Positions 19,199 to 35,704 of a DNA stretch of 57,776 nt are shown piece after piece (the stretch's first letter is position 1; every line of letters begins with the position of its first letter). The position numbers were made by a program, and so were the translations under genes. Source of the stretch: a virus. Below the pieces are notes generated by a model. It searched no databases and was not told the DNA's origin. It worked only from the letters and a program-made list of their open reading frames with translations. The stretch lies in IMG/VR virus record IMGVR_UViG_3300045988_022519, positions 1 through 57,776 of that record. One strand, 5' to 3'.

Positions 19199-20257
19199 TC
19201 AGATCTTCGTCAGATAACGAGTTGATCCATCGGCCGTTCCTACTGCGATGTAACGAAGTGCACCACTGTATGCGGTGTAACGACCCCAAAGATATCCGTC
19301 ATGGATCTCGCTCCAACCGTCGAGAATCACAGTCTGACCAGCGCGATAGGTAGCAACGACAGTGGATGCCAGCGACTGGGCAGAACGAACATTCAAAGCC
19401 TCAACTGCAACACGATAGGTTCCAGCGCTCACAGTATTGGCAACAGACGGAACGGATCCAATTGAAAGATAGGTCTGAGAACCATCAGCCGTTCCGAGAG
19501 CGATGTAGCGAGTCGCACCGCTGTATGCGGTGTAACGACCCCACTTATATCCATCGGCAACAGTCATCCAGCCATCGAGATTGACAATCTGATTACGGGT
19601 ATAGGTTGCAACAACAGACGCCGAAGTCGATGCACCAGAACGAACGTGGAGCTGATCAACGACGACAGTATAAGAACCAGCATTAATGGAACCGGTCTGA
19701 GAAGCAGTTGGAGTAGTTGCAGGCTTGACAGGAGTTGGAGCAGGCTTGGAGCCAGTCATTGAATCATAGTATGCCTGAGCCTTCGCCATATAGGCATCGC
19801 GCTGATTTCCAGCAATGGATGCCGGGCAGGCGGTGGAAGAGAAGTGACTATGCGGGAAGACATTGACGCCCCACTGCGGTCGACCGAGCTTATAATACTT
19901 GCAGAGGGCAGCGACGAGGTGTGCACCATTGTCCAAAGTCGCCTCGGAAATATGCCAGGGGGAAGTGGAATCGTCAGCATGTTCGATACCGATGGACTCA
20001 ACATTTGCATTCCAATTTCCGGCATGCCAGGCGGTATCCTTATCCCACACAAGCTGACCAATGGTTCCATTAGCTTCAACCTGATAATGGGCGGAAGCTT
20101 CACGAGTCTGCCAAACATTGTAGCAGCCTTCAGTGGTCAGATTACCGCCATTGTGATGAACAACAATATAACGAATTGGATTTCCGGAACGTCCCGGAGT
20201 GAAATGAGTATTGATAATCTTGACTTTATCAGCGTCAAGAGTTTCCCAAGACTTCAT
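19199..20257 (-). CDS. Endolysin: N-acetylmuramoyl-L-alanine amidase (Amidase_2/PGRP) plus two SH3b-like repeats
   Basis: N-terminal IRYIVVHHNGG...AHYQV...WHAGN...IGIEH. Two C-terminal repeats GxYxVxVxxLxVRSxxSxxxxVVATYxxxQxVxLDGWxxxxDGYxWGRYTAYSGAxRYIAxGTADGS. Confidence 0.9.
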   Translation of the reverse strand: MKSWETLDADKVKIINTHFTPGRSGNPIRYIVVHHNGGNLTTEGCYNVWQTREASAHYQVEANGTIGQLVWDKDTAWHAGNWNANVESIGIEHADDSTSPWHISEATLDNGAHLVAALCKYYKLGRPQWGVNVFPHSHFSSTACPASIAGNQRDAYMAKAQAYYDSMTGSKPAPTPVKPATTPTASQTGSINAGSYTVVVDQLHVRSGASTSASVVATYTRNQIVNLDGWMTVADGYKWGRYTAYSGATRYIALGTADGSQTYLSIGSVPSVANTVSAGTYRVAVEALNVRSAQSLASTVVATYRAGQTVILDGWSEIHDGYLWGRYTAYSGALRYIAVGTADGSTRYLTKI

Positions 20258-22185: not shown

Positions 22186-22500
22186 TCACTCGCTAGTCGG
22201 TGCTGGAAGAGTGGCTTCACCCTTCTTAACTGCCTTATCGAGAGAATCGACCTCGACCACAGTAATGATATTACCAGTCGCTCCGGTCACCTTAGAACCA
22301 GAAGTGAAATTCACCCAGTGATCCGAAACCGCGCACGTTGTGTTATAGTTCACAGTCGGCTTGCTAGTAGATGGAGTGATCCGATAACGAAGGGAATTAC
22401 CAGCAGCGGCCTCCGGGCTCACATTAACAGTCTGACCACCAGTAGTGGCATTAGCTGTCACATTGAGGACTCCAAGTTTCTCAGACTCCGGAGGCGTCAC
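22186..22500 (-). CDS. Ig-like domain ORF, probably expressed as a -1 frameshift extension of the capsid protein
   Basis: 104 aa, Thr/Ser/Val-rich beta-type sequence, no ATG (the ORF track uses GTG at 22500), no RBS. Lies in the -1 frame relative to the capsid gene, which ends with the slippery heptamer at 22503-22509. Confidence 0.55.
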   Translation of the reverse strand: MTPPESEKLGVLNVTANATTGGQTVNVSPEAAAGNSLRYRITPSTSKPTVNYNTTCAVSDHWVNFTSGSKVTGATGNIITVVEVDSLDKAVKKGEATLPAPTSE

Positions 22501-24260
22501 GCTTTTGGGGATTCGATCACAATCGCAGACTTGAGCTTCGACAGAGCACCAGACATACGGGTTTCCATCAGATACTTCTTCTGGTTATAATCGATATCGA
22601 AGTCCTCGAAGGAAGTAACAGCACCACCATTATCGGTACCAATGGTGTAGTCCCGGAGATTCACGATCAGAGCATCCACGTTGTTAGACTGCTTCTTCGG
22701 ATCAACAAGATTCTCAAACAGCGGAACCTCAACAATAGCGGACACACCCATTGCGGCTGCAAGAGATGCATCGGTGTCGTACAAACGACGACCGACCTTA
22801 TCACGCTGAACCATAAGCTGGCCGTGCTTGGACGGAGAAATAAACATGGTCGGAGTTCCAGAGCCAAGATAACCAGTCTTGGAGGTACGAACACGATCGA
22901 CAAATGCAGTCATATCCTCATCTGCAGCAGTAGCAACGGAATAGATCACATACATCTCATCATCACCAACGATTGGTCGAATGCACTCACTGTTGATATG
23001 ATCCTCATCACTTGCAGAACGACCATCACCGATCAGAACCGCACGAGCGATTTCCTCGTCGAGCATGACCTTCATTTCAGACATAAGGAAATTCACAACA
23101 GAGAAATCAGTGATGTCGATGATATCATCACGATCCAGCTTCTGCTTCTTATAGATCGTAGTTGGAGTGGTCTGACGCTTGGCGACCTTGAAGATCTCAT
23201 CCATCTTTCGATTGTTATTATCTCGATCAAGGGTAAAGCCCTTAGCACGAGCCGTATCCTCCGTAAGATCAGCATAGTACGTCTTAATACGCGAGAACGG
23301 AGTATGACGAGTGCCACTCAGAACAGTGGAAACCCATTCAGTATCGCGCTTATAGAGTTCGGGCTGGTTTTCAACAGCCTTGGCATCCGGGAAAAGAATA
23401 CCAATATCCTTGATACCATAGTCCTGGGCATGAGCGATCGCGAAGTCCTTAAACGAAGTCGGATTCTCCTTCGCCACAGCAGTCATGAATGCTTCCTGAT
23501 CCTCGTGGGAAACATAATCGGCAGTGCTCATTGCCATACCGTTCTTTTCAAAAATGTTCATTGCATCTCCTTCAAAAGCCGAATGCTCGGCAGTGTTATT
23601 TTCTTTATTACCAGTGGCATTATCAATAGCAAGGCCGATAAGAGCATAGACTACATTCTTCTGCTTATCGGTCAAAGTATCGAAGACATCCTGAATGGTT
23701 TCACCATCGGAATCTTCATCAGAACCATCAGCATGAGAAATATCATCTTCATATTCGGGTTCGTATTCATCATCCATCTGTACGATATCAAAAATATCCG
23801 AATGGTTGAGTTCTTCTCCCGAATAAATAACGGCTTCATCATCCAATTCATCAACATTCCCATCGGAGTGCTGAACGGCAACATTATCGATCATAGCACC
23901 CGGATTCGCTCCTGCCAGAACCAAACTGACCTCACGAATAACACCATGCTCGACGTTACCACCATTTTGACTCAAATGGTTTGCATAAATAGACAAGGAA
24001 TTGATGTCTCCATGGGATACGAGTTCCCTTGCCTGCTTTGCAGTCGGCGTATCATTGAACACACCATAGCAATAAACACCATCATCACGATTCTCGAGCA
24101 ATGCATGACCGAGAACGTTATCCGGCGAATTATGATCATGCTGCCAAACAAGGGGGACCACGTCTCCATCCTGTTCAGCAAATGCATTATGCATGATCGT
24201 GCGACCATCCGAGCAACGAATGTTGTTCTTAGTCGCGTAACCGCTGAAATCACTCTTCAT
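22497..24260 (-). CDS. Prohead protease (HK97/S78-like) fused to an HK97-fold major capsid protein
   Basis: N-terminal 130 aa (VPLVWQHDHNSPDNVLGHALLENRDDGVYCYG...GDINSLSIYAN...IREVSLVLAGANPGAMID) fits Peptidase_S78. An acidic linker follows, then a C-terminal Phage_capsid-like region (EEIARAVLIGDG...). Confidence 0.75.
   Translation of the reverse strand: MKSDFSGYATKNNIRCSDGRTIMHNAFAEQDGDVVPLVWQHDHNSPDNVLGHALLENRDDGVYCYGVFNDTPTAKQARELVSHGDINSLSIYANHLSQNGGNVEHGVIREVSLVLAGANPGAMIDNVAVQHSDGNVDELDDEAVIYSGEELNHSDIFDIVQMDDEYEPEYEDDISHADGSDEDSDGETIQDVFDTLTDKQKNVVYALIGLAIDNATGNKENNTAEHSAFEGDAMNIFEKNGMAMSTADYVSHEDQEAFMTAVAKENPTSFKDFAIAHAQDYGIKDIGILFPDAKAVENQPELYKRDTEWVSTVLSGTRHTPFSRIKTYYADLTEDTARAKGFTLDRDNNNRKMDEIFKVAKRQTTPTTIYKKQKLDRDDIIDITDFSVVNFLMSEMKVMLDEEIARAVLIGDGRSASDEDHINSECIRPIVGDDEMYVIYSVATAADEDMTAFVDRVRTSKTGYLGSGTPTMFISPSKHGQLMVQRDKVGRRLYDTDASLAAAMGVSAIVEVPLFENLVDPKKQSNNVDALIVNLRDYTIGTDNGGAVTSFEDFDIDYNQKKYLMETRMSGALSKLKSAIVIESPKA
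22503..22509 (-). promoter_or_regulatory. Candidate -1 programmed ribosomal frameshift site C_CCA_AAA
   Basis: Minus strand ...GAA TCC CCA AAA GCG TGA. The X_XXY_YYZ heptamer is in the correct zero-frame register two codons before the capsid stop. The -1 frame reads ...PK-SVTPPESEKLG..., the downstream ORF. Confidence 0.55.
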
Positions 24261-24328: not shown

Positions 24329-25612
24329 TTATGTATTTTGAACCGTTCTTGTCAAATCATCCATCTCATTATTGGCATCGTCATACTCGTCCTGTTGAAT
24401 ATCATCGTCATGTTCGGAATCGTTTTGTTCCTCATCAATTGGATTAATATTTGCATTACGAAGCTGATCAGCATTGCTATCATCGGATTGTTTAAGTCCA
24501 AGAATAGCACGTACTTCATTGGATGTCATGACTTCGGATGATAGAAATACCGATGCCGAATTGGCGAGATCGTTTACAGTAACAAGCCGGAATGGATCCC
24601 GAAATGCCTTGATTCGTTGACCTTGGGTTCGAGCAGTCTTCGTAAGAAACGTCGATTGCATGGAATCCGTTATCGCTGAAATGACTGGTTCAATGGTTCC
24701 GTTATGGTAATTCAGCATCTCCTGATCTCCAGCAGTGCCATTGGCAATTGCCTCAGAAAAACCAAGATTGTTGTAAAGATCTGTCTTCAAATTCTTGATC
24801 TGATCGAGAAGATTATTATCAACTGGTCGATTCAGCTGAGTTACTTTTTCAGTACCATCGGTATACGCGATTCCATATTTGGACTTGGCAAGCTGGTCCT
24901 CGATCTGTTTACGACGTTTCTCAGCCTGTTGCATTCGTGCTTCCGATTTAATAGCGAACGGAAGCTGAATTATCATGTCCAATTTTCCAGATACTGTCTT
25001 GTCATCTATTTCATCCAAAAGATTCAGTTTATGAATAAGACGTTGAAGTGTCGAATTCGGCTGATTCATTATCGTATAAAATGGATTATTGGCGATCGCG
25101 ACCATACTCTTCGGAAGAGTTATTTTTTCACTTTCACCAGTTCTGTCGTTATACAACTGAACTTCAACATAATCCGGAAACCATTGATTCACACGTCCAA
25201 CTCGAAGAGATCGAATATCATAACTATTATTGTTGATTGGACTATTATCCACATCAACTGGAACGATTGCAGCAGCTCCGGCATCAAACATTGTAAGAAC
25301 AGCATCACGAATAAAATCACGCGATGTCTGATCCTTATTCGCTGCGAAGTGAAGGCAATCATTCAAACCGCTACTGACATCTTTGACGTATTCCTCGTCA
25401 TCATTGACATAACAATGACGAATCGGAAGTGCCGCAACATCAATTGCGATTTTGTTATATAATGATGTAATAATCGATCGTTCAGTTCCGCCGGAAAAAT
25501 ATGGACGATCAGGATTAGCCCAATTAGACGATCCGATTGATGGCCTAAAATCGGAAGCCGGTTGAAGAAAAGCATTCCAGGCGTGAACTAATCTGTCCGA
25601 TAATGTTGGCAC
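24329..25612 (-). CDS. Portal protein (candidate)
   Basis: 427 aa immediately upstream of the protease-capsid gene; GTG start 7 nt after AAGGAGG; acidic C-terminal tail. Called on position, size and general portal-like sequence character only. Confidence 0.55.
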   Translation of the reverse strand: MPTLSDRLVHAWNAFLQPASDFRPSIGSSNWANPDRPYFSGGTERSIITSLYNKIAIDVAALPIRHCYVNDDEEYVKDVSSGLNDCLHFAANKDQTSRDFIRDAVLTMFDAGAAAIVPVDVDNSPINNNSYDIRSLRVGRVNQWFPDYVEVQLYNDRTGESEKITLPKSMVAIANNPFYTIMNQPNSTLQRLIHKLNLLDEIDDKTVSGKLDMIIQLPFAIKSEARMQQAEKRRKQIEDQLAKSKYGIAYTDGTEKVTQLNRPVDNNLLDQIKNLKTDLYNNLGFSEAIANGTAGDQEMLNYHNGTIEPVISAITDSMQSTFLTKTARTQGQRIKAFRDPFRLVTVNDLANSASVFLSSEVMTSNEVRAILGLKQSDDSNADQLRNANINPIDEEQNDSEHDDDIQQDEYDDANNEMDDLTRTVQNT

Positions 25613-25624
25613 ATTGGCACCTCC

Positions 25625-26152
25625 TTATAGATTGAAACCGTGATTTCTCAGAAAAGCTTTGCCGATCGTCGCACCAATCTTGACTTCAGCTTGGGCCATA
25701 CGACCCGCATTTTGAACAAATGCCTTAGTTTCTTTCGGATTTTTGATAGCATATCCAATAGCGGCTGAAGCTGCTGTAGCCGCTGCAAATCCGACAGCTG
25801 CAGTTGCCTCTCTGGTAATTGTACGTCCGACCCGTCCAGCGCCTTGACGAAAACCTTTTGTTTTATCGGTAACAGTTCGCTGACGTTGCGCAGACCTTCG
25901 AGCCTTACTCAGATCCTGTTTGGCATACGCCTTTTCATATTCGGCTTTATACGTCGGATCCTTAGACTTTTGCTTTACAATGGCATTGATATTTCGTCTT
26001 CGGACACCAGCACCCTCACCATAATACATTTTGGCACGTGCTGATTCTTTCGCATCTCTTCGGGCTTCTCGTCGAACACCCCATTTCATGCCTTTGACGC
26101 CGAAATGCTCAAGGTAATCCGGATAGTAATAATCATTAATATCTTTCGTCAT
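25625..26152 (-). CDS. HFGVKGMKWGVR-leader family protein 1 (175 aa)
   Basis: N-terminus DYLEHFGVKGMKWGVRREARR, basic region, then Ala/Gly-rich hydrophobic segment ATAAVGFAAATAASAAIGYAI. Confidence 0.7.
   Translation of the reverse strand: MTKDINDYYYPDYLEHFGVKGMKWGVRREARRDAKESARAKMYYGEGAGVRRRNINAIVKQKSKDPTYKAEYEKAYAKQDLSKARRSAQRQRTVTDKTKGFRQGAGRVGRTITREATAAVGFAAATAASAAIGYAIKNPKETKAFVQNAGRMAQAEVKIGATIGKAFLRNHGFNL
26073..26110. repeat. 38-nt repeat encoding the leader motif (copy 1 of 6)
   Basis: cgaacaccccatttcatgcctttgacgccgaaatgctc. Confidence 0.9.
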
Positions 26153-26158
26153 TAGAAC

Positions 26159-26575
26159 CTACTTATAATTATTACGGATTCTACTGGCAACACTAACTGC
26201 ACCATATGCTGCAAGCAAGATTGCAGTATTCCTTACTGCATCACATTTAGCTTTCGCAGTAGCTTCGGAAACAGACATGTCATTATCAACTACATACTTA
26301 GCCGCCCTCTTTCGAGTGGCATCGTCGAACATGACTTTTTCATAAAATGACGAATTCTTATTAATACCTTTATATGTATCCTTTATTGCATTCTTACGTT
26401 CTCGTTTAGCACTTTTATATGCACTTTTGGCCGAGTTCAATTGATCTTTGCCTAAACCAGCCTTACGAGCTTTCTTGTATTCAGATTTTGCATTGAGAAC
26501 TTTTTGTTTTCGAACACCCCATTTCATGCCTTTGACGCCGAAATGCTCGAGATAATCGTCTTCGTTAATGATCAC
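26159..26575 (-). CDS. HFGVKGMKWGVR-leader family protein 2 (138 aa)
   Basis: MIINEDDYLEHFGVKGMKWGVRKQKV...; hydrophobic AILLAAYGAVSVAS near the C-terminus. Confidence 0.7.
   Translation of the reverse strand: MIINEDDYLEHFGVKGMKWGVRKQKVLNAKSEYKKARKAGLGKDQLNSAKSAYKSAKRERKNAIKDTYKGINKNSSFYEKVMFDDATRKRAAKYVVDNDMSVSEATAKAKCDAVRNTAILLAAYGAVSVASRIRNNYK
26511..26548. repeat. 38-nt leader-motif repeat (copy 2)
   Basis: cgaacaccccatttcatgcctttgacgccgaaatgctc (identical to copy 1). Confidence 0.9.
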
Positions 26576-26577
26576 TT

Positions 26578-26970
26578 TTATCTCCTTAAATTGTTTAATA
26601 GTGTTGGACCATACTGTTTTAGCAAAGATCCGCCTTTTGCAACACCATAAGCAATAACGGCACCTGCAGCCATATCGGCGATCTTTTGAACCGAAGTCTG
26701 TTCGAAACGGTCAACAAATTTCTTACCAATACCTTTGTAACTTCTATTGTTTTTATAAGTGTTCTCAAGTTGCAAACGATTGTTTGCTTCCTGAAGTTCA
26801 CGATTAGACATTTCATAAGGTTTTTTCTTCATGATGTCTCGAGAACGAGTGTAATCTTCACTTGCTACTCGTTTCGTTTTTCTGGATCTAGACGATCCAG
26901 AACTCTTCTTATCATGTCGAACGCCCCACTTCATGCCTTTGACGCCGAAGTGGTATAATTCGTCAGCCAT
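26578..26970 (-). CDS. HFGVKGMKWGVR-leader family protein 3 (130 aa)
   Basis: MADELYHFGVKGMKWGVRHDKK...; hydrophobic IADMAAGAVIAYGVAKGG. Confidence 0.7.
   Translation of the reverse strand: MADELYHFGVKGMKWGVRHDKKSSGSSRSRKTKRVASEDYTRSRDIMKKKPYEMSNRELQEANNRLQLENTYKNNRSYKGIGKKFVDRFEQTSVQKIADMAAGAVIAYGVAKGGSLLKQYGPTLLNNLRR
26918..26955. repeat. 38-nt leader-motif repeat (copy 3)
   Basis: cgaacgccccacttcatgcctttgacgccgaagtggta. Confidence 0.9.
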
Positions 26971-27310
26971 CGAATCCTCCTTCTGCCTGAACGTTCAAAC
27001 GCCATTCAAGCTCAGAGATGTTATTCTTGATGCTTTCAGTGACGAATGAATTGCTTGGTGGATCGAAAAGAAGACGGACTTTGGATTGAATATATGGCTT
27101 CAATGCAGCTATGATGCATTGATTATCGCTATAATCAGACCATGTGGTTTCAGATCCATTAATCAAAAAACCATTTTTAGGTCCTATTCCAAGTTGCCAA
27201 AGATTATAAAATGCACCATTTATATGATTGGTGATTTCTTCATCAAAAGAATCATCTTCAGGTTCGACACCAAGCATCTTTTTAATAGTGTTAAGAATAC
27301 TTGATTCCAT
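26963..27310 (-). CDS. Head-tail connector protein (gp6-like / Phage_connect_1)
   Basis: 115 aa; ILNTIKKMLGVEPEDDSFDEEITNHINGAF...KVRLLFDPPSNSF...ELEWRL is typical of the gp6-like connector family. Confidence 0.55.
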   Translation of the reverse strand: MESSILNTIKKMLGVEPEDDSFDEEITNHINGAFYNLWQLGIGPKNGFLINGSETTWSDYSDNQCIIAALKPYIQSKVRLLFDPPSNSFVTESIKNNISELEWRLNVQAEGGFDG

Positions 27311-27319
27311 TTTGACCTT

Positions 27320-27739
27320 TCATTTGGAGATCGGAGTCCAAAGACATGTATCTCCAGGATGACGTTCAATCGGTAATTTGAGAATCGATTGATCACCATA
27401 ATGTATAGCATTATGTGTAAGAATAGAACATGAGATCAGATAATTTGGATCCAAGATGGTTATGTCAGAATTCTCCAATGATTCAGGAGATAGAGGACAC
27501 ATATGATGAACCATTATTCGTCCCGGTATCGGGATATCCGAACATCCAAGATCAAACCCACCATCACGTTCTATTACATAATCGCGAATCCGTTTCCATT
27601 CACGAGAACGATAGAATTTTTGATTCATGTATCTTTCAGATCCAAAAGTAGGTTCACCCACTCGTCCATGAAGCATTAGATAATTGAATCGTTCATCAAA
27701 TGTACTCATCTGTTTTAGATCAGAGTATGTTCTAATCAT
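27320..27739 (-). CDS. HNH endonuclease (terminase-associated type)
   Basis: FYRSREWKRIRDYVIERDGGFDLGC...IMVHHMCPL...LDPNYLISCSILTHNAIH. Confidence 0.8.
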   Translation of the reverse strand: MIRTYSDLKQMSTFDERFNYLMLHGRVGEPTFGSERYMNQKFYRSREWKRIRDYVIERDGGFDLGCSDIPIPGRIMVHHMCPLSPESLENSDITILDPNYLISCSILTHNAIHYGDQSILKLPIERHPGDTCLWTPISK

Positions 27740-27933
27740 GCGAATGGATAGTATACGTTCTTTCTAGCAGTACTCTTGTAACGCTTCTTGATTTCAGATA
27801 CAGTAGCCATCTTCTGAATATCCTGTTGTGTCTGTAGCCACTGACGCATGGACTTATTCGAGTATTTCTTACGGGCGTGTCGAACACCCCATTTCATTCC
27901 TTTGACGCCGAAATGATATAGTTCGTCAGACAT
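27736..27933 (-). CDS. HFGVKGMKWGVR-leader family protein 4 (65 aa, leader plus short basic tail)
   Basis: MSDELYHFGVKGMKWGVRHARKKYSNKS... Confidence 0.6.
   Translation of the reverse strand: MSDELYHFGVKGMKWGVRHARKKYSNKSMRQWLQTQQDIQKMATVSEIKKRYKSTARKNVYYPFA
27881..27918. repeat. 38-nt leader-motif repeat (copy 4)
   Basis: cgaacaccccatttcattcctttgacgccgaaatgata. Confidence 0.9.
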
Positions 27934-27937
27934 CGAA

Positions 27938-29158
27938 TTACCTACTTTCTCTTATCTTTAAAATTTCATTATTGGATAGTTTGGTATTCGGATGTTGTTT
28001 ACGATACTTAGTTACAAATTTAGTTTCGATTGAATTCTCGGCTATTTTTATAGTACCCATAGATGCAACGACTGCCGCTCCTTGTGGTGCAAAGGAATTT
28101 ACTAAAGTATGAGCAGCGATTTTTCCGGTTTCCTTGCCATACAAACCATTAATATAATCGTTCCCAAGTTTAGTAAATTTGTCAACCTTGATCTTGTCAG
28201 TATCAAATACGATCAACGGATTCTTTGCAAAATATCCAGAATTCTCTTTATCATTAACATCGCGAATGGCTCCATATCCGGCGTTTTTCAGTGCAGAATA
28301 GAATTTCTCATTAAGTTTCTGCTGATCCTTATCATGATTAACCAACAAAGTGTTAAAGGCTTTATAAGTATTATCGCCTATTTTTCCAGAATCAAGTTCT
28401 TTCTTTGCCTTACCCCAAAGTCTACCTTGTTTACCTATCGATCCTTCCATAGCTTTAGCAAGAATATCAACTTCACTCTTGAATTTACTGAATGATTCCT
28501 TATCATTATCAAGCATGTTCTTTAGTACTTTACGAGCCGACTCAGGAGAAGCAATCTTAATATCTCCAGCGGCCTTCATGGCTTTACGATACACATCGGA
28601 TCCATCCAGTCCAAGCTGTTTTCCATAAAGACCCTCGTATCTTTTCTGGTCATGCTTATTTACGAATCCATAAAATGCTCGATTCGCTGGCTCTGAACCA
28701 TCTTTGGTTATTCGTCCGATCCAGTTTCCGTTTTTGAGAATATGATCAGTTACTTTATCATAATGTTTATATGCGGCATAAGCAACCGCAGAACTTACTG
28801 CAATTCCTCCAGCGACTTTGAGAATTGTTTCTGTTTTTGCTCTATTATACGCTTTGATTTCGGATTCGTCTTTGCTAAAACCCTGATCAATGTATTTCTT
28901 TTCAAGAGCCAGCTGACGTTTTGACTTTTTATTCTGACTTTCTAGTTTCAATCGGGTCTTAGCATCTTCAAATTCACGTCGTGAATACTCAGCCTTAGCA
29001 ACATTTGATCTTGTAGAGTACCACTTTGCAATCCTCTGATCATATCGCATCTGTTCTCTCTTTTTACCGAGAGATGTCAAGGATCCATCCTCGTTCTGAT
29101 ACTTTCGAACGCCCCACTTCATACCTTTGACGCCGAAATGATAAAGTTCATCAGACAT
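27938..29158 (-). CDS. HFGVKGMKWGVR-leader family protein 5 (406 aa)
   Basis: MSDELYHFGVKGMKWGVRKYQNEDGSLTSLGKKR...; TM-like ILKVAGGIAVSSAVAYAAY; large C-terminal domain of unknown function. ATG 29158 has AAGGAG 6 nt upstream; the ORF track starts at 29194. Confidence 0.7.
   Translation of the reverse strand: MSDELYHFGVKGMKWGVRKYQNEDGSLTSLGKKREQMRYDQRIAKWYSTRSNVAKAEYSRREFEDAKTRLKLESQNKKSKRQLALEKKYIDQGFSKDESEIKAYNRAKTETILKVAGGIAVSSAVAYAAYKHYDKVTDHILKNGNWIGRITKDGSEPANRAFYGFVNKHDQKRYEGLYGKQLGLDGSDVYRKAMKAAGDIKIASPESARKVLKNMLDNDKESFSKFKSEVDILAKAMEGSIGKQGRLWGKAKKELDSGKIGDNTYKAFNTLLVNHDKDQQKLNEKFYSALKNAGYGAIRDVNDKENSGYFAKNPLIVFDTDKIKVDKFTKLGNDYINGLYGKETGKIAAHTLVNSFAPQGAAVVASMGTIKIAENSIETKFVTKYRKQHPNTKLSNNEILKIRESR
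29106..29143. repeat. 38-nt leader-motif repeat (copy 5)
   Basis: cgaacgccccacttcatacctttgacgccgaaatgata. Confidence 0.9.
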
Positions 29159-29171
29159 TGGATGCTCCTTA

Positions 29172-29630
29172 TTATACAATTGTCGTATCGACAATTATTT
29201 TGTTTCCAATTGCTTTCAATGCTTCAGATGCTGGAGATGCCCAACTATACCCTTTGCCATAACGAGCTTTTAAATAATTCATATAAATCGGACTATGGGC
29301 GTATTTGTTTACTGCCTTATTTAAACCATAATTTAGTAAAATCCTACCCTGTGGGGATGCCATTATTGCAATACCACTGGCAGCTAGTCTCACTACACGT
29401 TGACGATTTTGTTCATGCTTAGCTGCTTGCACGTAGGTCTTTCCTTTATTCATGGAACGGTTAATTCGTTTGACTCCACGATCGCCATATTTAAAAGAAT
29501 CATTACGTCGATTATAACTCGTATAGTTCTTATTACGTGGTTCTTTTTGTTTTCGAACGCCCCACTTCATGCCTTTGACGCCGAAGTGTTCAAGGTAATC
29601 GTCTTCATTAATAATCACTGTTATCCACAA
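29172..29630 (-). CDS. HFGVKGMKWGVR-leader family protein 6 (about 148-152 aa)
   Basis: ...IINEDDYLEHFGVKGMKWGVRKQKE...; hydrophobic VVRLAASGIAIMASP. Start ambiguous (TTG 29630 or GTG 29618). Confidence 0.65.
   Translation of the reverse strand: MWITVIINEDDYLEHFGVKGMKWGVRKQKEPRNKNYTSYNRRNDSFKYGDRGVKRINRSMNKGKTYVQAAKHEQNRQRVVRLAASGIAIMASPQGRILLNYGLNKAVNKYAHSPIYMNYLKARYGKGYSWASPASEALKAIGNKIIVDTTIV
29554..29591. repeat. 38-nt leader-motif repeat (copy 6)
   Basis: cgaacgccccacttcatgcctttgacgccgaagtgttc. Confidence 0.9.
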
Positions 29631-29648: not shown

Positions 29649-31391
29649 TCATTCAAACGAATCTCGATTAAGTTTCCAAGAAATATAAGCATCCATCATT
29701 GCGGCAACCGAATCGATTTTTGCTTCTCTTCGAAGCTTTGCCAACTTTCGATTATTATTGGTATCCATAAGGACGATACAATTACCCATGGTGAATGACA
29801 TGATCTCTTGATCAAAAATCAATCGACGATCTTCGGCCAATTTCTTAAGTTCTCCAAGCGGAACCGACTCGGTCTTAGCACCCTGAATTACCTTTTCGAT
29901 GGCGAAATCACCGTTTTCCAAAGCCCAACGTGCAATGAAATCTTTGGCATTATATGGATCATAGCCAACCGATCGAACATCGTATTCGTTATCAAGAATA
30001 AATCGTTCAAGATCCTCGTAAACCAGATTCATGTCAAGAACGGTTCCATCCATGATTATCAAAGAACCTTCCTTAATGAACTCGTCATACTTCTGACGAC
30101 TTGCTAATGGAAGTTTTGACAATGTGTATTCGGAAATGTAATTATGTGATTTCACACCAAATGTCTCATTCCCCAATGGGAACATGAACGTGAATGAACA
30201 GAAATCATCACCCTGAGAAAGATCACAACCCATTGCGCAAGGCATACCCCAGAAATCACGTTTCCTATGAGGTAGAGTTTCTTCATAGGTAAAGAAGTAT
30301 GTATAGCCCTCCATAGGAATTCCAAAACGCTTGGCCAAAATATCGTTGCGTGTCGCTGGTGCATTCTCGGCACGTTCGACATCCAACTGATAAGTTTCAT
30401 AGCTTACAGTCTTACCGATATTCGGATTTGCTTTAATCCATAAATCTGGGTTCGATACTTCCTGTACATCATCAAGTCGATAATAGAAAATCGAAACATG
30501 CGGATTGACATAGTCGCCTTTAAGGATCGACATCAATTCCATTTTGATGGTATCACCAGCGGAATTTCGAACGGTACCTTCTGAGGATGTGGCAATGATT
30601 ACATAGTCATCGATTTTAGATGCACCCTGTTCGATAGCTCCGATGACATCCTCGCGTATATCGCCAGACAACCATTCATCAACGGTATTTATCTTACTTC
30701 GAAGACCCTGAAGTTTATCAATAGACATTGGTCGAACTTCAAGCTTGGATCCTGTAAGGAAGTTTTTGATTCCTTCCTTTACGGAAGCAAGTTTAGCCTG
30801 TTTTGATTTCGGTCCCATTCCCGGAGCGCATCCATCAGTTAGGAATTTAAACAATGGACCGACCGAACGAGTAATAGCTGTTCGCAATGGAGCCATTACT
30901 TCATCAGCCTGTTTCATTGTTGGAGCAACCGTGATCTGATGGGTCGTGGATGTATCGATGACTAGGAAATATGCCTGAACGAATTCATCATACAGAGACT
31001 TCGCACCACCTCGGGCAACAATCAAATACTGTTTGTTAATCAAACGTTTCTTGATTCTACGATTTACATAATGACCGCCAGGTTTGTCTTTGTTTGGAAC
31101 ATAGACTGACTTAGTAACGAAATAATACCATCCAAATAATTCCTCACCCCATAGTTTGAATGAATCAAGCATATGGAATTTAGAACCGTCGGTGAGGGTG
31201 AGTTCGTTTTCACAGAATTTAATAAAACCTTCAACGGGTTCTGAATCGTAATAGATTCCAGGATTTCGAATAAGATCGTCAATTCGATTCATCTCCATGG
31301 AAATCTCACGACATACTGGAATTTCTCCACGCATTACTTTCTGACGAAACTCGCCATAATATTTTGGTGTCGCAGTATTGGAAAATACCAT
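29649..31391 (-). CDS. terL: Terminase large subunit
   Basis: 580 aa; Terminase_1-like ATPase region (LIVARGGAKSLYDEFVQAYFLVID...APTMKQADEV) and a C-terminal nuclease-type region; position upstream of the head genes. Confidence 0.85.
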   Translation of the reverse strand: MVFSNTATPKYYGEFRQKVMRGEIPVCREISMEMNRIDDLIRNPGIYYDSEPVEGFIKFCENELTLTDGSKFHMLDSFKLWGEELFGWYYFVTKSVYVPNKDKPGGHYVNRRIKKRLINKQYLIVARGGAKSLYDEFVQAYFLVIDTSTTHQITVAPTMKQADEVMAPLRTAITRSVGPLFKFLTDGCAPGMGPKSKQAKLASVKEGIKNFLTGSKLEVRPMSIDKLQGLRSKINTVDEWLSGDIREDVIGAIEQGASKIDDYVIIATSSEGTVRNSAGDTIKMELMSILKGDYVNPHVSIFYYRLDDVQEVSNPDLWIKANPNIGKTVSYETYQLDVERAENAPATRNDILAKRFGIPMEGYTYFFTYEETLPHRKRDFWGMPCAMGCDLSQGDDFCSFTFMFPLGNETFGVKSHNYISEYTLSKLPLASRQKYDEFIKEGSLIIMDGTVLDMNLVYEDLERFILDNEYDVRSVGYDPYNAKDFIARWALENGDFAIEKVIQGAKTESVPLGELKKLAEDRRLIFDQEIMSFTMGNCIVLMDTNNNRKLAKLRREAKIDSVAAMMDAYISWKLNRDSFE

Positions 31392-31404: not shown

Positions 31405-31950
31405 CTAAATGTTACTAGAAGGAGTTGGACCTGATTGATTCTGATAATGTGATCCAAGATTGGCGGAACCATATACGCGAGCCACTGCTCCGGTTAGTTC
31501 GAAGAAACACAATTGACCAATTCTCATTCCCGGGAATATGCGAATCGGGTGGTTGTTCTCGTTCTTTATCTCAAGGGTAATATCTCCTGAGAAACCAGGA
31601 TCAATAAATCCAGCAGTGATATGAGTCGCCAAACCGATTCGACCCATCGAAGATTTGCCTTCGTATCGAGCCGCTAGATCGGATGGAATATTAACGGATT
31701 CATTTGTTGAACCTAGAATAAATTCCCCTGGCTCAAGAGCATAACCTTCATCTGGAATGATGAACTTAAAATATTCCAGATCCCTAAGTGACTTATCAGA
31801 AGCGTTAATCTCGCCACTTCCGATATAACGAATGATAGACTTAGAAAGAGTCACATCATAACTACATGGTTGAAGATTATTCGGATCATAAGGAGAGATA
31901 AGTTCATGATGAATGGCTAGATCATCAATGGAAACATCATTCAGAATCAT
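31405..31950 (-). CDS. dcd: dCTP deaminase (dUTPase superfamily)
   Basis: MILNDVSIDDL...LQPCSYDVTLS...GEFILGSTNESVNIPSDLAARYEGKSSMGRIGLATHITAGFIDPGFSGDITLEIKN...IFPGMRIGQLCFFEL. Start set at the internal ATG 31950. Confidence 0.85.
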   Translation of the reverse strand: MILNDVSIDDLAIHHELISPYDPNNLQPCSYDVTLSKSIIRYIGSGEINASDKSLRDLEYFKFIIPDEGYALEPGEFILGSTNESVNIPSDLAARYEGKSSMGRIGLATHITAGFIDPGFSGDITLEIKNENNHPIRIFPGMRIGQLCFFELTGAVARVYGSANLGSHYQNQSGPTPSSNI

Positions 31951-32299
31951 ACTCGGCACTACTTTCAATTGTCTGATTCGTCGCAGCACCAGAATATGTC
32001 TTAAAAGCTTCAATTGCTGCATTGGCGATTCGTGTGTATTCGCCAGAATCCTGTACGGCATTGGTCTTAGCTTCGATCATTTTGGTTTCACACCGAATCT
32101 TGGCCTGCTCAAGCTGTTCGCGTGTAGAAGCAAGTTTCAGAAAATGTGTAAGGACCTGTGATGAGGCTGTTCCCTCTCGAATCTGTTTCTCAACTAGATC
32201 AATTGTCATGTTGATCAACTGATTCTCACGTCCGGCAACTGTTTTAGCCGGAGGTTCTCTTAGGGATAAAGGTTCGTTCGACTTTGCTCGTCGAGCCAT
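31937..32299 (-). CDS. Possible terminase small subunit (120 aa)
   Basis: First gene after the structured leader; basic N-terminus then helical REGTASSQVLTHFLKLASTREQLEQAKI. Assigned mainly by position. Confidence 0.35.
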   Translation of the reverse strand: MARRAKSNEPLSLREPPAKTVAGRENQLINMTIDLVEKQIREGTASSQVLTHFLKLASTREQLEQAKIRCETKMIEAKTNAVQDSGEYTRIANAAIEAFKTYSGAATNQTIESSAEYDSE

Positions 32300-32611: not shown

Positions 32612-32890
32612 TTATTTTTGAATATTTTCTGGATTTGTTTTCATATCTTTAGATATTCGAATGTAAATACCTAAAGGATCATGAGCTATGATGCGATTCA
32701 TTGCTTGATTGTACTCATACTCTTGTTCTTCATCTGTCATCTCAATGGATGATGTGATGAATCGAGCAATGTAAGCACATGTATGATAGCCCATACGTTC
32801 ATCGTATGCATACCAACCATCATAGTCAATCCATGGATTGAAAGGATTGTCAATAGTAGTAAGCATGTATTCTTTATCTGCCATCATCAA
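32612..32890 (-). CDS. Hypothetical protein (92 aa)
   Basis: ORF TTIDNPFNPWIDYDGWYAYDERMGYHTCAYIARF...; no family named. Confidence 0.6.
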   Translation of the reverse strand: MMMADKEYMLTTIDNPFNPWIDYDGWYAYDERMGYHTCAYIARFITSSIEMTDEEQEYEYNQAMNRIIAHDPLGIYIRISKDMKTNPENIQK

Positions 32891-32911: not shown

Positions 32912-35704
32912 TTAGTCTTTGTCATCAGAAGTTCCAGCCTTCTTAGGTTCAAGGTTCCTATAGAGAGTGGATGTAGAGATGCCAAGACGCTCTGCTACCT
33001 GTGATTGTGTATAGCCACGTTTGAGTAAGGTTTCAGCCATGCTAAGCATAGATGCTGACATACCAGTCTCAGTATGTGGCATAGCCAATTGCTTCAACTT
33101 GTCAGGATCTGAGTTAGCCAGTATTCTGCTAAGTGTATTAGCGCTGACTGCATGATTCTGTATGGCTTCCCATTCCTTATCAGTGATGTCAATCTGTTGC
33201 TTTTTGGCACCGGTTCTCTGACGGGCCTCTGTAAGACACTGTCCTTTAAGACGTTTCTTATCAGAGTTATCATATTCTGGATGCTCATCCAACTTGATTT
33301 TATATAGTTGGTTTGCAACAAACTGGGCTCGGCGTTCCAAAGGAGAGTTCTTTTCTGCAATGTTAAGTTTAGCATTGAGAGATTGAACTTCAGTCGCATA
33401 CTTCTGCTTGGCTGCTGGATCATACTTGAAAGAACCGGCAGACAGATATGATTTGCGGGTTTGATTTGCCAGGGCCTTCATTTTATTAGCATAGTCTGCA
33501 TAAATATTTTCCATCTGGGTACCAGTTGAAAGAGAATATGCATCCTTTGCATAAGCCATCTTAGTGGTCTTTGTAAGATAAGGAATCGTCTTTTCGGAAA
33601 TGATGTTCCCTTCTTTGTCATACTTTTTCTTCACATAAGAACGATTTGTATTCTTATAGCGAAGTTCACCAGTATTTGGATCGATGGGACCACCTTCAGA
33701 AGCTTTCCAAAGACGACGTTCGGGAACATCGATCTCAGACTTAGCTCTAGAAATAAGAGTCGAAGCACCACCTGGTTTTCCACCACCAGGTTTGGGCTGA
33801 TACTTTGCCTTAAGAGCATCAATTCCATTATCGATTTCAGACTGACGCCAATTAAGCTTATGCTTCTCGGCATCAATAACCACCATCGAATGACGAACTG
33901 CCCTTTCGATCTCAGACCATTCCGCACCTTTAAGGGTCATGTCTGTAATAAGGTTTGAGACCTTACCCATCTCAGTTCCCTTTTGCTTTTTGGTCATTAC
34001 TTTCATGCCTTCATAGGCAGGATATGCCTCTTTAGGATCAAAGTTTTTAAGACCAGCAAGCGGAGCTCGAGTCTTAATCTCATGTCTTGGGTTCGGAATA
34101 ACCAAAACATTATCACCATCGAAATCTGCACCAGAAAGAATTTCAGCAACATGCGAATTAATACCTACTGCATCACTTGGATGAGTTCCCATAACTCGCT
34201 TTGCTTCTGCATTTTTGTTGTTGACTTTCAATTCTGGAATTTCGAATTTACCTCCATGTGGGAAACGAATAAGAACTACATCTTCACCATCACGAAGATG
34301 AGGGGCGTAGATCTCATTGTCCTTCAAAGAGGTGATCGGTAAAATAACTTTAGTCGCCTGACGTGGCATAGCTGCTGCCTTTAGATCTACAGCCGCTGTG
34401 TCGCATTCATCTGCAAACTCTTTAAGCATCTTGGCTTTTACAATCGGATTTGTCAGACTCATAATATCATCATACTGACTCTTACGAACCTGGTAATCAA
34501 TATCCAATTGTTTCTTGGCAAGACTCTTGTCCTGTTTTGAAAGCATCTGAGATGGAAGCACAGACTTCCATTCCGACCAAACACCTTCTCCATTGACAAG
34601 ATTTATAGCGGACTGCTTCTGGTTTCCGTCCTTATCGATATAATGATAGTTCTTGAAGGTTGCACCGAATGGAATATCCCAATCGATATCACCTTGGCTA
34701 CCATCAGGATTCTTGACTTTCTTCAAAGGCTTCAAAACATCATCAATTTCATTTGTCTTTCCTGTTTTAGGATCGACTCGATGCTTGTTCGTGTTGAATA
34801 TGATGTCAACGCCTTTAGGGAAGTCCTTTTCTTGACCGTAGACAGCCATACCTTTCAAATATGACTTATCTCCAACATTAATTCGGACCTGTGCGTATAG
34901 CATATTTCCCATACGAAGATCAGCAGCCGAAGGACGAATCTCCATAACGCCATCTTTTTCGATTCCGCCTTCTTCATTGTAACGAATTTTCACTCGTTTA
35001 GGATCGACGGAAATCGGCCTTTGAAATTTCGAACCTTGTCCCTCAGGATGTTTTTCATCAAGAGGATTTGCGATTGATTTAAATAAGGATGGATTATCCC
35101 AAATATCCTTCACAGTCGTTCCTGGAGCCAATAGAACCTTAATATCAGTGGTATTATCTGGTCCACTCGCTCCAAGTTGCTTAACATAAAGATGACCAAC
35201 ATGATAACCTTCATTTTTAAGCATCTCAGCTGCTACTTTTAGCTTATCGGCTGAACTATTCAAATATAGCTCAGTCGACTTGCCAATATCGACACATCCT
35301 TTTTCACCAATGGTATCTTTGAGATTTGTGGCGATTGTCTGAGCGACGTCAGTGCGAACTTTCAAAGAAGGATCCAGCCAATTACGAACCGTGGATTCAT
35401 TGGTATTCATTCGCTGAGCGATGGCCACATTAGAATATCCCTTTTTCTTCAGGCGGTATGCCATTGAAATATTCGCTTGACGTTCCTCTGCGAGCGCAAT
35501 GGACTTTTGGGCCCTGTATTGGGTTGTAGTCATTCCGAGAGCTCGTGCAATTTCAGTCTGTGTAAGACCTTTACTCGCAAGTTCTCGAGAACGACCTAAA
35601 AATCCAGGCTCATGCTGATATGGATCTTCACCAGATCCCCATTTGTATCGACCGGAACGACGTTTGACACCTTCGTGCATCAAATATGATTCTTCAAGCA
35701 TCAT
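32912..35704 (-). CDS. Putative single-chain two-barrel (YonO / RdRP-like) RNA polymerase with N- and C-terminal HTH modules
   Basis: beta-like barrel segment YLKGMAVYGQEKDFPKGVDIIFNTN (34784-34849). beta-prime-like catalytic segment DVVLIRFPHGG...ILSGADFDGDNVLVIPNP (DFDGD at 34112-34126). HTH-like LTQTEIARALGMTTTQYR, YSNVAIAQRMNTNESTVRNW, YTQSQVAERLGISTSTLYRNL. Confidence 0.6.
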   Translation of the reverse strand: MMLEESYLMHEGVKRRSGRYKWGSGEDPYQHEPGFLGRSRELASKGLTQTEIARALGMTTTQYRAQKSIALAEERQANISMAYRLKKKGYSNVAIAQRMNTNESTVRNWLDPSLKVRTDVAQTIATNLKDTIGEKGCVDIGKSTELYLNSSADKLKVAAEMLKNEGYHVGHLYVKQLGASGPDNTTDIKVLLAPGTTVKDIWDNPSLFKSIANPLDEKHPEGQGSKFQRPISVDPKRVKIRYNEEGGIEKDGVMEIRPSAADLRMGNMLYAQVRINVGDKSYLKGMAVYGQEKDFPKGVDIIFNTNKHRVDPKTGKTNEIDDVLKPLKKVKNPDGSQGDIDWDIPFGATFKNYHYIDKDGNQKQSAINLVNGEGVWSEWKSVLPSQMLSKQDKSLAKKQLDIDYQVRKSQYDDIMSLTNPIVKAKMLKEFADECDTAAVDLKAAAMPRQATKVILPITSLKDNEIYAPHLRDGEDVVLIRFPHGGKFEIPELKVNNKNAEAKRVMGTHPSDAVGINSHVAEILSGADFDGDNVLVIPNPRHEIKTRAPLAGLKNFDPKEAYPAYEGMKVMTKKQKGTEMGKVSNLITDMTLKGAEWSEIERAVRHSMVVIDAEKHKLNWRQSEIDNGIDALKAKYQPKPGGGKPGGASTLISRAKSEIDVPERRLWKASEGGPIDPNTGELRYKNTNRSYVKKKYDKEGNIISEKTIPYLTKTTKMAYAKDAYSLSTGTQMENIYADYANKMKALANQTRKSYLSAGSFKYDPAAKQKYATEVQSLNAKLNIAEKNSPLERRAQFVANQLYKIKLDEHPEYDNSDKKRLKGQCLTEARQRTGAKKQQIDITDKEWEAIQNHAVSANTLSRILANSDPDKLKQLAMPHTETGMSASMLSMAETLLKRGYTQSQVAERLGISTSTLYRNLEPKKAGTSDDKD

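Follow-up and report, generated by a model that had tools for sequence, protein, structure and literature searches.

Why should six proteins of one phage, the bodies of which share hardly any sequence, begin with the same short peptide? This question is raised by the interval between the genes of the large terminase (TerL) and the portal protein in a viral DNA of 57,776 nucleotides (nt; IMG/VR virus record IMGVR_UViG_3300045988_022519, positions 1 to 57,776). This whole stretch, hereafter called the window, is a complete-looking siphophage genome of ~58 kb in which essentially every gene is located on the minus strand. The explanation we favor, and to which we give about an even chance of being correct, is that these genes encode accessory head-module proteins with a shared head-loading and ejection tag.

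Six minus-strand genes share a DUF7211 leader

The TerL-portal interval holds six minus-strand open reading frames (ORFs), which we named g6 to g1 in the order of transcription. All of them were recovered on the strand and at the coordinates that had been assigned by an initial annotation of this DNA, and each consists of a leader of the Pfam family DUF7211 (PF23847) and a following body or tail:

29172-29630, minus strand: g6, 152 amino acids (aa), DUF7211 leader and a basic body of 126 aa (phrog_34327)
27938-29158, minus strand: g5, 406 aa, DUF7211 leader and a 388-aa body of the phrog_7502 family
27736-27933, minus strand: g4, 65 aa, DUF7211 leader and a basic tail of 47 aa
26578-26970, minus strand: g3, 130 aa, DUF7211 leader and an LS..EL.....R..LE..Y body of the widespread family phrog_7021
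26159-26575, minus strand: g2, 138 aa, DUF7211 leader and a 116-aa body
25625-26152, minus strand: g1, 175 aa, DUF7211 leader and a phrog_6291-family body, next to the portal gene on its upstream side

In each of these proteins the string HFGVKGMKWGVR is located 6-15 residues past the start. Its flanks fall into two subtypes, (I)NEDDYLE- in g1, g2, and g6 and (S/A)DELY- in g3, g4, and g5, and the consensus of the ~20-residue tag reads Φ-L-x-H-[F/Y/H]-G-[V/I]-K-G-M-[K/R]-W-G-[V/I]-[R/K]. The start of g6 is ambiguous (TTG at 29630 or GTG at 29618); the GTG codon yields the N-terminus MIINEDDYLEHFG, which is identical to that of g2. When the proteins were compared with Pfam, all six matched the 25-position model of PF23847 at 39.0-48.5 bits (gathering score 27 bits). 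An independent hidden Markov model (HMM) of the leader, which was built from 185 copies in other phages and searched against 985 six-frame segments of the window, gave 44.6-51.4 bits (E 1e-13 to 1e-15) for g1-g6 and no other significant match among these segments. These scores assign the six leaders to DUF7211, a family of unknown function. Since this family has been catalogued before, it is not new; what is new is the functional hypothesis, the link between polyproteins and a protease site, and the breakpoint evidence. The multi-copy arrays, the enzyme fusions, the link to a lineage with a particular RNA polymerase (RNAP), and the role in recombination go beyond what the name of the Pfam entry conveys. 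A literature search retrieved no paper on DUF7211 or on the motif, which also goes without mention in the papers on Arthrobacter and Gordonia genomes.

One might object that the ORFs are not real genes or that the motif reflects noise in low-complexity sequence. The single observation that speaks for such an artefact is that g4 is small (65 aa). The array genes are closely packed (gaps of 2-18 nt or small overlaps), Shine-Dalgarno sequences are present, the Pfam matches lie above the threshold, the HMM E-values are as low as given above, and orthologues occur in hundreds of phages. The tight operon spacing, the Pfam and HMM scores, and the orthologues refute this objection, and the probability we assign to it is negligible.

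Behind the leaders, the bodies showed no mutual BLAST similarity except for a weak match between g3 and g5. Together with the PF23847 matches in all six proteins, this result bears out the initial description of near-identical leaders on divergent bodies. Relatives of the g1, g3, and g5 bodies were found in 17, 28, and 13 loci, respectively, and the three bodies are not idiosyncratic but members of families with orthologues across the phage lineage. For g1 and g5 the orthologues in phage ReqiPepy6 are gp021 and gp020, and the g5 family conserves the motifs LKKG..L.R, PS, and GY.A..D.ND..SGY..K.PLI.FD. The candidate assignment of the g5 body as an ADP-ribosyltransferase found no support, as Pfam searches on the g5 family at E<=1 gave DUF7211 only. 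An AlphaFold2 model of g5 (alignment of 15 sequences with 72-89% identity) was unusable, with a mean predicted local distance difference test (pLDDT) of 50.7 and a predicted template modelling score (pTM) of 0.40. Searches of the PDB sequences with the leader profile, the g5-family profile, and the protease-capsid fusion protein of the window yielded no significant match. A homologue search with the leader profile returned only DUF7211-only fragments of 30-84 aa, and those with g5 and the g5-family profile returned only one gut clade with ~73% identity. Hundreds of these ~73%-identical g5 versions reside on 50-57-kb contigs of human-associated metagenomes, with single clusters present on up to 133 contigs; thus, the window belongs to a very abundant and heavily sampled clade of gut phages.

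The bodies had also been described as basic with an Ala/Gly-rich hydrophobic segment. Indeed, all six proteins are strongly basic (net +11 to +27), and five of the six carry a single Ala/Gly-rich hydrophobic segment with Kyte-Doolittle values of 1.0-1.6. The individual maxima are 1.60 (g1), 1.47 (g5), 1.24, 1.08, 0.97, and -0.58, and ReqiPepy6 (Pepy6) paralogues reach up to 2.1. In g5, hydrophobic segments are located near residues 111-129 and 355-372. As yardstick for a transmembrane segment we used a ~19-residue hydrophobic helix with a mean of at least 1.6.

These properties introduce the main rival of a head-loading tag. The tagged proteins might be membrane-anchored factors of the infected cell (a platform for portal or prohead assembly, superinfection exclusion, lysis timing), which are neither packaged nor injected, and DUF7211 would then serve in the cytoplasm as a peptide that docks to TerL, to the portal, or to a different phage protein. 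We consider this alternative unlikely, though it is the strongest competitor. It accounts well for the hydrophobic Ala/Gly-rich segment behind a basic stretch in five of the six window proteins and in most Pepy6 paralogues, for the annotation of Pepy6 gp020 as 'hypothetical membrane protein', and for the excess of membrane proteins for which this phage lineage has been noted (PMC5513430). In addition, TerL, the most conserved protein of the lineage, is flanked by tagged genes. On the other hand, window values of 1.0-1.6 are marginal for a transmembrane helix, and g4, Pepy6 gp017, and ORF7 of Lactococcus phage 1706 carry the tag yet lack a hydrophobic segment. Further observations that bear on this alternative are given below with the enzyme fusions and the junction motif.

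The tag is a hallmark of a siphophage lineage and sits in its head module

When the leader was searched by tblastn, it was detected at 927 places in 238 isolated phages, which infect Arthrobacter (95), Gordonia (55), Streptomyces (54), Lactococcus (9), Curtobacterium (7), Microbacterium (4), Rhodococcus (4), and Faecalibacterium (2). A search with the window RNAP retrieved 250 records, and the counts for RNAP and leader were equal for Arthrobacter, Gordonia, Streptomyces, Curtobacterium, Microbacterium, and Rhodococcus hosts. The tagged phages are those of the Actinobacteria-Firmicutes 'supercluster' with a DxDGD polymerase (bioRxiv 10.1101/842583), in the description of which the leader is not reported. 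The motif is not peculiar to the window but a hallmark of a cross-phylum '1706/Pepy6/Arthrobacter AM-AU' siphophage lineage, whose members also encode a YonO-like RNAP and a fusion of protease and capsid protein. When 1.84 billion representative proteins were searched exhaustively with a profile, 25,757 clusters matched at E<=1e-3. IMG/VR contains at least 440 stretches with a match to the leader, and 80 of these loci (guanine-cytosine [GC] content 35-59%) were retrieved. Each of the 80 loci carries 1-7 tag copies, which are always located on one strand.

The genes that surround the array in the window are the following:

29649-31391, minus strand: large terminase (TerL), 59-77% identity to the TerL of every related locus
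27320-27739, minus strand: HNH endonuclease (phrog_4321), interrupts the array
26963-27310, minus strand: head-tail connector (Phage_connect_2, PF24829), interrupts the array
24329-25612, minus strand: portal protein (PF04860)
22497-24260, minus strand: fusion of prohead protease and major capsid protein (phrog_3270), a single ORF of 587 aa

The phrog_4321 and PF24829 matches agree with the initial observation that the array is broken up by an HNH endonuclease and a connector gene. In most relatives these two genes are located upstream of TerL; in the window and a few gut relatives (L002, L003, L026, and L075) they have shifted to a place among the tagged genes of the TerL-portal array. Where the contig allows it, the shared gene order is RNAP, a 1706-gp04-like gene, HNH, connector, [tagged genes], TerL, [tagged genes], portal, and protease-capsid fusion. 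TerL of this lineage is present in 79 of 82 related loci (59-77% identity), and in 79 of the 82 the tagged genes belong to the connector-TerL-portal-protease/capsid module. Phage ReqiPepy6 carries seven tagged paralogues (gp015-gp021) in its TerL-portal interval and, upstream of it, a fusion with a LigT domain. The degree of TerL conservation is unusual. The amino acid identity with Gordonia, Rhodococcus, and Lactococcus phages and with 79 metagenomic loci amounts to 59-77%, and across phyla and GC contents portal (36-59%) and capsid protein (35-58%) are far less conserved.

In 185,579 bacterial and archaeal genomes, a scan with the variant pattern [EY]HFGVKGM found just three small contigs of metagenome-assembled genomes (MAGs), and it is for this variant that absence from cellular genomes was shown. 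From these searches, the motif appears to be phage-specific and, with the exception of locus L061, it is part of a head module. In L061, two DUF7211 genes (9049-10960), one of them with a g5-family body, are flanked by unknown PHROGs and an HNH gene, and the tag may occur here in a second, unrelated phage type.

The tag recurs inside polyproteins and behind enzyme domains

Among 225 tagged ORFs in the loci, 12 hold two to four tag copies and 15 have one internal copy. Polyproteins that hold 2-5 copies and reach up to 1,569 aa make up most of the best 150 representative proteins. For instance, an ORF of 760 aa in L037 contains four tag copies spaced ~190 residues apart, and in L019 a LigT domain is followed by three tagged units. 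The closing unit of most polyproteins is g3-like (motif LS..EL.....R..LE). In Pepy6 gp013 and Avazak gp12, a 2H-phosphoesterase domain precedes the tag, which is found at residue ~350. Lactococcus phage 1706 ORF7 has two tag copies and is annotated in GenBank as 'structural protein'. This annotation reportedly goes back to the work of Garneau et al. in 2008 with sodium dodecyl sulfate-polyacrylamide gel electrophoresis (SDS-PAGE) and liquid chromatography-tandem mass spectrometry (LC-MS/MS). Since 2-5 copies occur inside polyproteins and tags stand behind N-terminal enzyme domains, the tag is a module and not strictly an N-terminal leader.

The enzymes attached to tagged proteins comprise LigT/2_5_RNA_ligase2 (3 of 92 and 10 of 74 sampled proteins, 2.4e-07), GNAT acetyltransferase (3 of 92 and 5 of 74 sampled proteins, 2e-11), a papain-fold glutamine deamidase (Gln_amidase; 4 of 92, best E 2.4e-6), and an ADP-ribosyltransferase (ADPrib_exo_Tox; 1 of 92, E 5.7e-5). 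Enzymes of these kinds are known from injected phage proteins and polymorphic toxins. They are soluble domains that would most plausibly act in the cytoplasm. For LigT and GNAT, this property speaks against membrane-anchored factors, and so does the structural annotation of 1706 ORF7.

A junction motif upstream of internal tags is enriched in the linker of the protease-capsid fusion

We aligned 295 internal tag copies on the invariant His. Upstream of them, the consensus Φ-x-[H/Q/M]-[S/A/D/T]-x(3-6)-[D/E]-[D/E]-Φ-L-x-H was obtained, and H[S/A] peaked 10-12 residues upstream of the tags (45 of 295 copies vs. ~4 expected). In the paralogous junctions IIHSLG and IIQSLG, H and Q interchange. The same string is found in the linker of the protease-capsid fusion. 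In the window, this linker contains five Φ-x-H-[S/A/E] sites (LNHSD, ISHAD, AEHSA, VSHED, and IAHAQ). When 30 protease-capsid linkers were evaluated, 142 Φ-x-H-[S/A/D] sites were counted vs. 23.8±4.6 in composition-preserving shuffles (~6-fold). Per 100 residues, the density of this motif was 2.54 in the linkers, 0.82 in the protease domains, and 0.12 in the capsid domains, so that the linkers exceed the capsid domains ~20-fold. The acidic linker of the window fusion also holds a QDVFDTLTDKQKNVVYALIG helix module, which is duplicated in L003 and ReqiPepy6.

The linker string is a candidate maturation cleavage motif with H/Q/M in the P1 position. As the fusion protein must be cut in its linker during maturation, we infer that the junction motif is a site of the prohead protease and that the polyproteins are its substrates, a conclusion drawn from sequence statistics. 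If so, the polyproteins would be located inside proheads. The predicted products begin with S/A-D/E-...-Φ-L-x-H-Y-G and are thus like the N-termini of single-gene proteins after Met removal (MSDELYHFG, MADELYHFG). Directly behind the tag, V-R-H-D occurs in g3 and V-R-H-A in g4, and no such string follows the tag in g1, g2, g5, and g6. The initial suggestion that the prohead protease possibly removes the leader is not supported. Because the junction motif lies ~10 residues upstream of the internal tags, processing would expose the leader rather than remove it, and nothing points to removal. The protease-capsid fusion is a candidate for the processing enzyme and also for the docking partner of the tag.

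That the polyprotein junctions and the protease-capsid linker have a motif in common suggests that the head protease does the processing, which is a further argument against membrane-anchored factors. It can also be read in another way. DUF7211 might mainly be a recognition site or exosite of the prohead protease, that is, a signal for polyprotein processing with no delivery function, and the products would be minor structural or scaffolding parts that are degraded or kept in the capsid. The regular spacing of the Φ-x-[H/Q/M]-[S/A/D] junction and the tag, as well as the recurrence in the linker, would be expected in this case. However, the single-gene versions, including all six of the window, need no processing and yet retain the tag perfectly, the protease-capsid linker has the junction motif without DUF7211, and conserved enzymes are not expected on scaffold debris. 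We regard such a pure processing signal as quite unlikely.

The leader DNA is conserved beyond the needs of the peptide and bounds exchanged cassettes

The six copies of the leader DNA that had been noted in the window were located within 1 nt of the positions initially reported. Their 36-nt cores are as follows:

29553-29588, minus strand: leader core of g6 (HFGVKGMKWGVR); homology with L003 stops at 29552
29105-29140, minus strand: leader core of g5; 95% match to Gordonia phage DNA over 41 nt
27880-27915, minus strand: leader core of g4; homology with L002 stops at 27879
26917-26952, minus strand: leader core of g3
26510-26545, minus strand: leader core of g2, same as the g1 core; homology with L002 and L003 stops at 26510
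26072-26107, minus strand: leader core of g1; 12-28 nt upstream of it, homology with L002 and L003 begins again

As stated in the initial annotation, the g1 and g2 copies are identical, in our alignment over 39 nt. The mean pairwise difference between the six cores was 2.33 nt vs. 6.19 nt expected from the codon usage of the window, and none of 20,000 simulations gave a value as low as this (P<5e-5). Six of the ten degenerate codons are invariant across the six cores, and among them is GGC, which accounts for only 16% of the Gly codons in the genome. The DNA of the window copies is thus more strongly conserved than the peptide requires, just as had been proposed. When 221 copies from 83 loci were compared, the codons varied and a ~2-fold position-specific preference for GGC-GTC-AAA remained (GGC 132 vs. 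62 expected, GTC 103 vs. 55, AAA 119 vs. 62). Strict DNA-level conservation of the leader across phages is ruled out by this codon variation in other loci. By megablast, 33-41-nt stretches of the 42%-GC window were 95-100% identical to ~52%-GC Gordonia phages (including Avazak gp15). These matches, at window positions 29105-29145 and 29551-29583, are confined to the leader and result from the shared GGC-GTC-AAA-GG codon preference.

In the two relatives closest to the window, L002 and L003, TerL is 100% identical in protein to that of the window. It can be seen from their alignment with the window that the homology block shared with L002 ends at 27879, 1 nt beyond the g4 leader, that the blocks shared with L002 and with L003 both end at 26510, the final base of the g2 leader, and that another block shared with L003 ends at 29552, 1 nt beyond the g6 leader. 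The g4 body is swapped for a different one in L002, and in L003 the g6 body and g5 are replaced. The whole g2 cassette is missing from both relatives, and the g2 body behaves as an indel that is flanked by the identical g1 and g2 leaders. In the more distant pair L026/L075, the breakpoints coincide with leaders in part only. The block ends in L002 and L003 identify the leaders as points at which bodies are gained, lost, and swapped. They are direct evidence of cassette exchange, and the cassette shuffling that had been anticipated for this array is thereby directly supported at the 3' ends of the g4, g2, and g6 leaders.

It might be argued that a function of the nucleic acid is primary and that the 36-39-nt block is a recombination element, a regulatory element, or an mRNA element at the 5'-end of cistrons, with the peptide being a passenger. 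The excess similarity of the window copies, the position-specific codon bias (GGC, GTC, AAA) across the 221 copies, the 33-41-nt Gordonia phage matches, and the breakpoints at leaders are all in line with this idea. Against it, other phages use synonymous codons (GGT/GGA, GTT/GTA/GTG, CGN/AGR) and keep the amino acids invariant, and long ORFs contain the motif at internal positions as well, at which an element for the 5'-end of cistrons would be senseless. Recombination at the repeats is better seen as consequence and bonus of a conserved peptide. We consider a primary nucleic acid function very improbable, and both this explanation and that of a protease recognition signal account for less of the data than a head-loading and ejection tag.

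The RNA polymerase of the lineage has a tag-like N-terminus

The initial annotation had assigned a relaxed version of the leader to a putative RNAP. The corresponding features of the window are:

32912-35704, minus strand: YonO-like single-subunit RNAP, 930 aa (phrog_4291, E=0), with the string GADFDGD and helix-turn-helix (HTH) domains at both ends
35630-35689, minus strand: degenerate leader-like N-terminus of the RNAP (SYLMHEGVKRRSGRYKWGSG)

The catalytic motif DxDGD is present (GADFDGD), which indicates an enzyme of the two-barrel type. For the N-terminus the evidence is divided. RNAP orthologues carry the consensus D/E-x-Φ-L-x-H-Y-G-[V/T/M/I]-[L/K/P]-R-[R/K]-S-G-R-Y-P-W-G-S-G and reach 9-13 bits with the leader HMM, whereas the window RNAP (YLMHEGVKRRSGRYKWGSG) scores a non-significant 2.4 bits (E 5.9). 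DUF7211 is not among the matches listed for the RNAP (best 25 of 39 Pfam families). The N-terminus resembles the first half of DUF7211 followed by W-G, with four residues inserted, and a relationship with the tag is plausible. The relaxed leader is supported in part only and stayed below significance in the window protein itself. Right after the tag-like N-terminus, the RNAPs of the window (residues ~29-35, positions 35600-35620), L017, L026, L034, and L051 conserve the string (D/N)PYQH(S/E). It is similar to the Φ-x-H-[S/A/D] junction and may mark a site of processing. The RNAP gene is always located directly upstream of the structural module, a position that fits a packaged polymerase without proving it.

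A proposed route into and out of the phage head

The observations presented above (the motif and its family, the lineage and the genomic context, the domain fusions, polyproteins, junction and linker motifs, and the recombination breakpoints) suggest a route for the tagged proteins in which we infer four steps, namely that the proteins dock in the procapsid, that the prohead protease cleaves them, that they are ejected into the host, and that the RNAP is packaged. The tagged genes would be expressed late from one tight operon with TerL, connector, portal, and the protease-capsid fusion. The tag would then dock each protein or polyprotein unit inside the assembling procapsid, most plausibly at the acidic, scaffold-like linker of the protease-capsid fusion or at the portal. 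In the polyproteins of relatives, the prohead protease would cut at Φ-x-[H/Q/M]↓[S/A/D], ~10 residues upstream of every tag, and after cutting every unit would carry its tag near the N-terminus, as single-gene products do. The basic proteins with one hydrophobic segment would remain in the DNA-filled head, a retention with which their strongly basic character is consistent, and would exit with the DNA at infection. The enzymes of relatives (LigT-type 2H phosphoesterase and GNAT, possibly also papain-fold deamidase and ADP-ribosyltransferase) would take the same route, and the RNAP with its diverged tag may share it. The near-identical 36-39-nt tag DNA would serve as sites of homologous recombination for gain, loss, and swap of the bodies.

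A shared capsid-targeting or ejection leader had been suggested from the start. In view of the head-module context, 1706 ORF7, and the enzyme fusions, this is still the best reading; what had to be given up is that the element is strictly N-terminal. Several observations weigh against a head-loading and ejection tag. Direct evidence for location in the virion is thin, namely that 1706 ORF7 carries the GenBank label 'structural protein'. The RNAP of phage 1706 (orf75) is annotated only as RNA-dependent RNA polymerase and not as structural, and the score of the window RNAP with the leader HMM is non-significant. The cleavage motif was derived from sequence statistics on phylogenetically related proteins, and some internal junctions contain Met and could be internal translation starts. 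The hydrophobic segments (1.0-1.6, in Pepy6 up to 2.1) could be true transmembrane anchors in the membrane of the infected cell, the deamidase and ADP-ribosyltransferase matches are weak, and L061 has tagged genes but no recognizable TerL, portal, or capsid gene of the lineage within 20 kb.

A head-loading role of the tag, if correct, would explain the content of the TerL-portal gap in hundreds of isolated phages, which include SEA-PHAGES phages of Arthrobacter, Gordonia, and Streptomyces, dairy Lactococcus phages of the 1706 type, and very abundant gut phages. It would also reveal an injected payload with candidate anti-defence or host-takeover enzymes and provide a short, sequence-defined handle for packaging foreign proteins in siphovirus heads, as the T4 capsid-targeting sequence does in T4. 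A more far-reaching version can be put forward only tentatively. According to it, DUF7211 would be the portable ~20-residue head-loading and ejection tag of the whole lineage, the fused prohead protease, with a 3C-like specificity Φ-x-(H/Q/M)↓(S/A), would dice the polyproteins in the procapsid, the products would form a customisable injected payload that includes the YonO-like RNAP, and the tag DNA would shuffle this payload. These phages would then be the first siphoviruses with an injected single-subunit two-barrel RNAP, and the payload would comprise anti-defence or host-takeover enzymes and membrane-active proteins, delivered to Actinobacteria and Firmicutes, also by abundant human-gut phages. 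Three questions thereby become testable in easily grown hosts: the RNAP as virion enzyme, the specificity of the protease-capsid fusion, and the diversification of cargo by recombination.

Neighbouring genes

Two small conserved genes are always located between the RNAP and the head module, 32612-32890 (minus strand, phrog_4303) and 31937-32299 (minus strand, phrog_4259). The phrog_4259 product is similar to 1706 gp04. A small terminase is not annotated in the lineage, and this product is a candidate for it. Between this 1706-gp04-like gene and TerL, the window carries a dCTP deaminase/dUTPase-like gene (31405-32061, minus strand, phrog_1663). Its longest ORF overlaps the 1706-gp04-like gene by 125 nt, and since the profile match begins at residue 31, the real start is probably located downstream. 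Its presence in no more than 6 of the 83 loci hints at an insertion that is particular to the gut clade of the window. An endolysin gene (19199-20257, minus strand, phrog_14048) lies within the tail-gene region, with the major tail protein on one side and an ORF of 1,983 aa (12860-18811) on the other, and ReqiPepy6 carries LysB at the equivalent position.

Comparison with known systems

One parallel is the capsid-targeting sequence (CTS) of phage T4, a short conserved N-terminal peptide on otherwise diverse, basic, and in part enzymatic proteins (IPI-III, Alt). In the window, a conserved short N-terminal peptide is likewise shared by several proteins of one phage that are otherwise unrelated. 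The gp21 protease cuts off the T4 CTS, whereas for DUF7211 the junction motif is located upstream of the tag, and the tag is internal and repeated in polyproteins. Moreover, the phages with DUF7211 are siphoviruses in which protease and capsid protein are fused and which lack a separate scaffold, and we claim no homology to the CTS.

MuF proteins are typically encoded by a single gene per phage, and DUF7211 differs by its many copies per genome. It also differs in size (~20 residues vs. a folded domain of ~100-200 aa), and the DUF7211 phages are apparently virulent and absent from bacterial genomes, as judged from the scan with the [EY]HFGVKGM variant. Both systems combine a conserved phage-specific N-terminal module, a location in the packaging/head module beside the portal, and variable toxin or enzyme domains. 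In our data, the tagged genes are located in the packaging/head module near the portal, and variable enzyme domains (GNAT, LigT, Gln_amidase, ADPrib_exo_Tox) are present in relatives and not in the six proteins of the window. For the MuF domain (PF04233), Pfam searches with g1-g6 gave no match at E<=0.1. The MuF polymorphic toxins, which are encoded by temperate phages, abound in phages of the gut, and delivery by injection has been proposed for them (Jamet et al., 2017, PMC5576092). Judged from their sequences, the six window proteins are members of neither the T4 CTS nor the MuF system.

With N4 gp50, crAss-like gp66, and YonO, the window RNAP shares the two-barrel architecture with DxDGD; it has a tag-like N-terminus and its gene lies upstream of the structural module. 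N4 gp50 and crAss-like gp66 are packaged in virions, whereas the window RNAP is known from its sequence and its 1706 orthologue is not annotated as structural. Encapsulin cargo-loading peptides are short conserved terminal peptides on diverse cargo that bind to the interior of an HK97-fold shell, and in the DUF7211 lineage the protease-capsid fusion belongs to the HK97 family. The two kinds of peptides are unrelated in sequence, and encapsulin cargo is not ejected. At the DNA level, parallels are the VENN motif of CdiA and the PxxxxDPxGL motif of Rhs proteins, short invariant peptides whose conserved DNA bounds exchanged C-terminal cassettes. The homology blocks of our array end in a similar way (27879, 26510 twice, and 29552, each at most 1 nt from a leader 3' end; partly so in L026/L075). 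VENN and Rhs motifs are located at the end of very large secreted bacterial proteins, whereas DUF7211 heads small phage proteins, for which the vehicle would be the virion.

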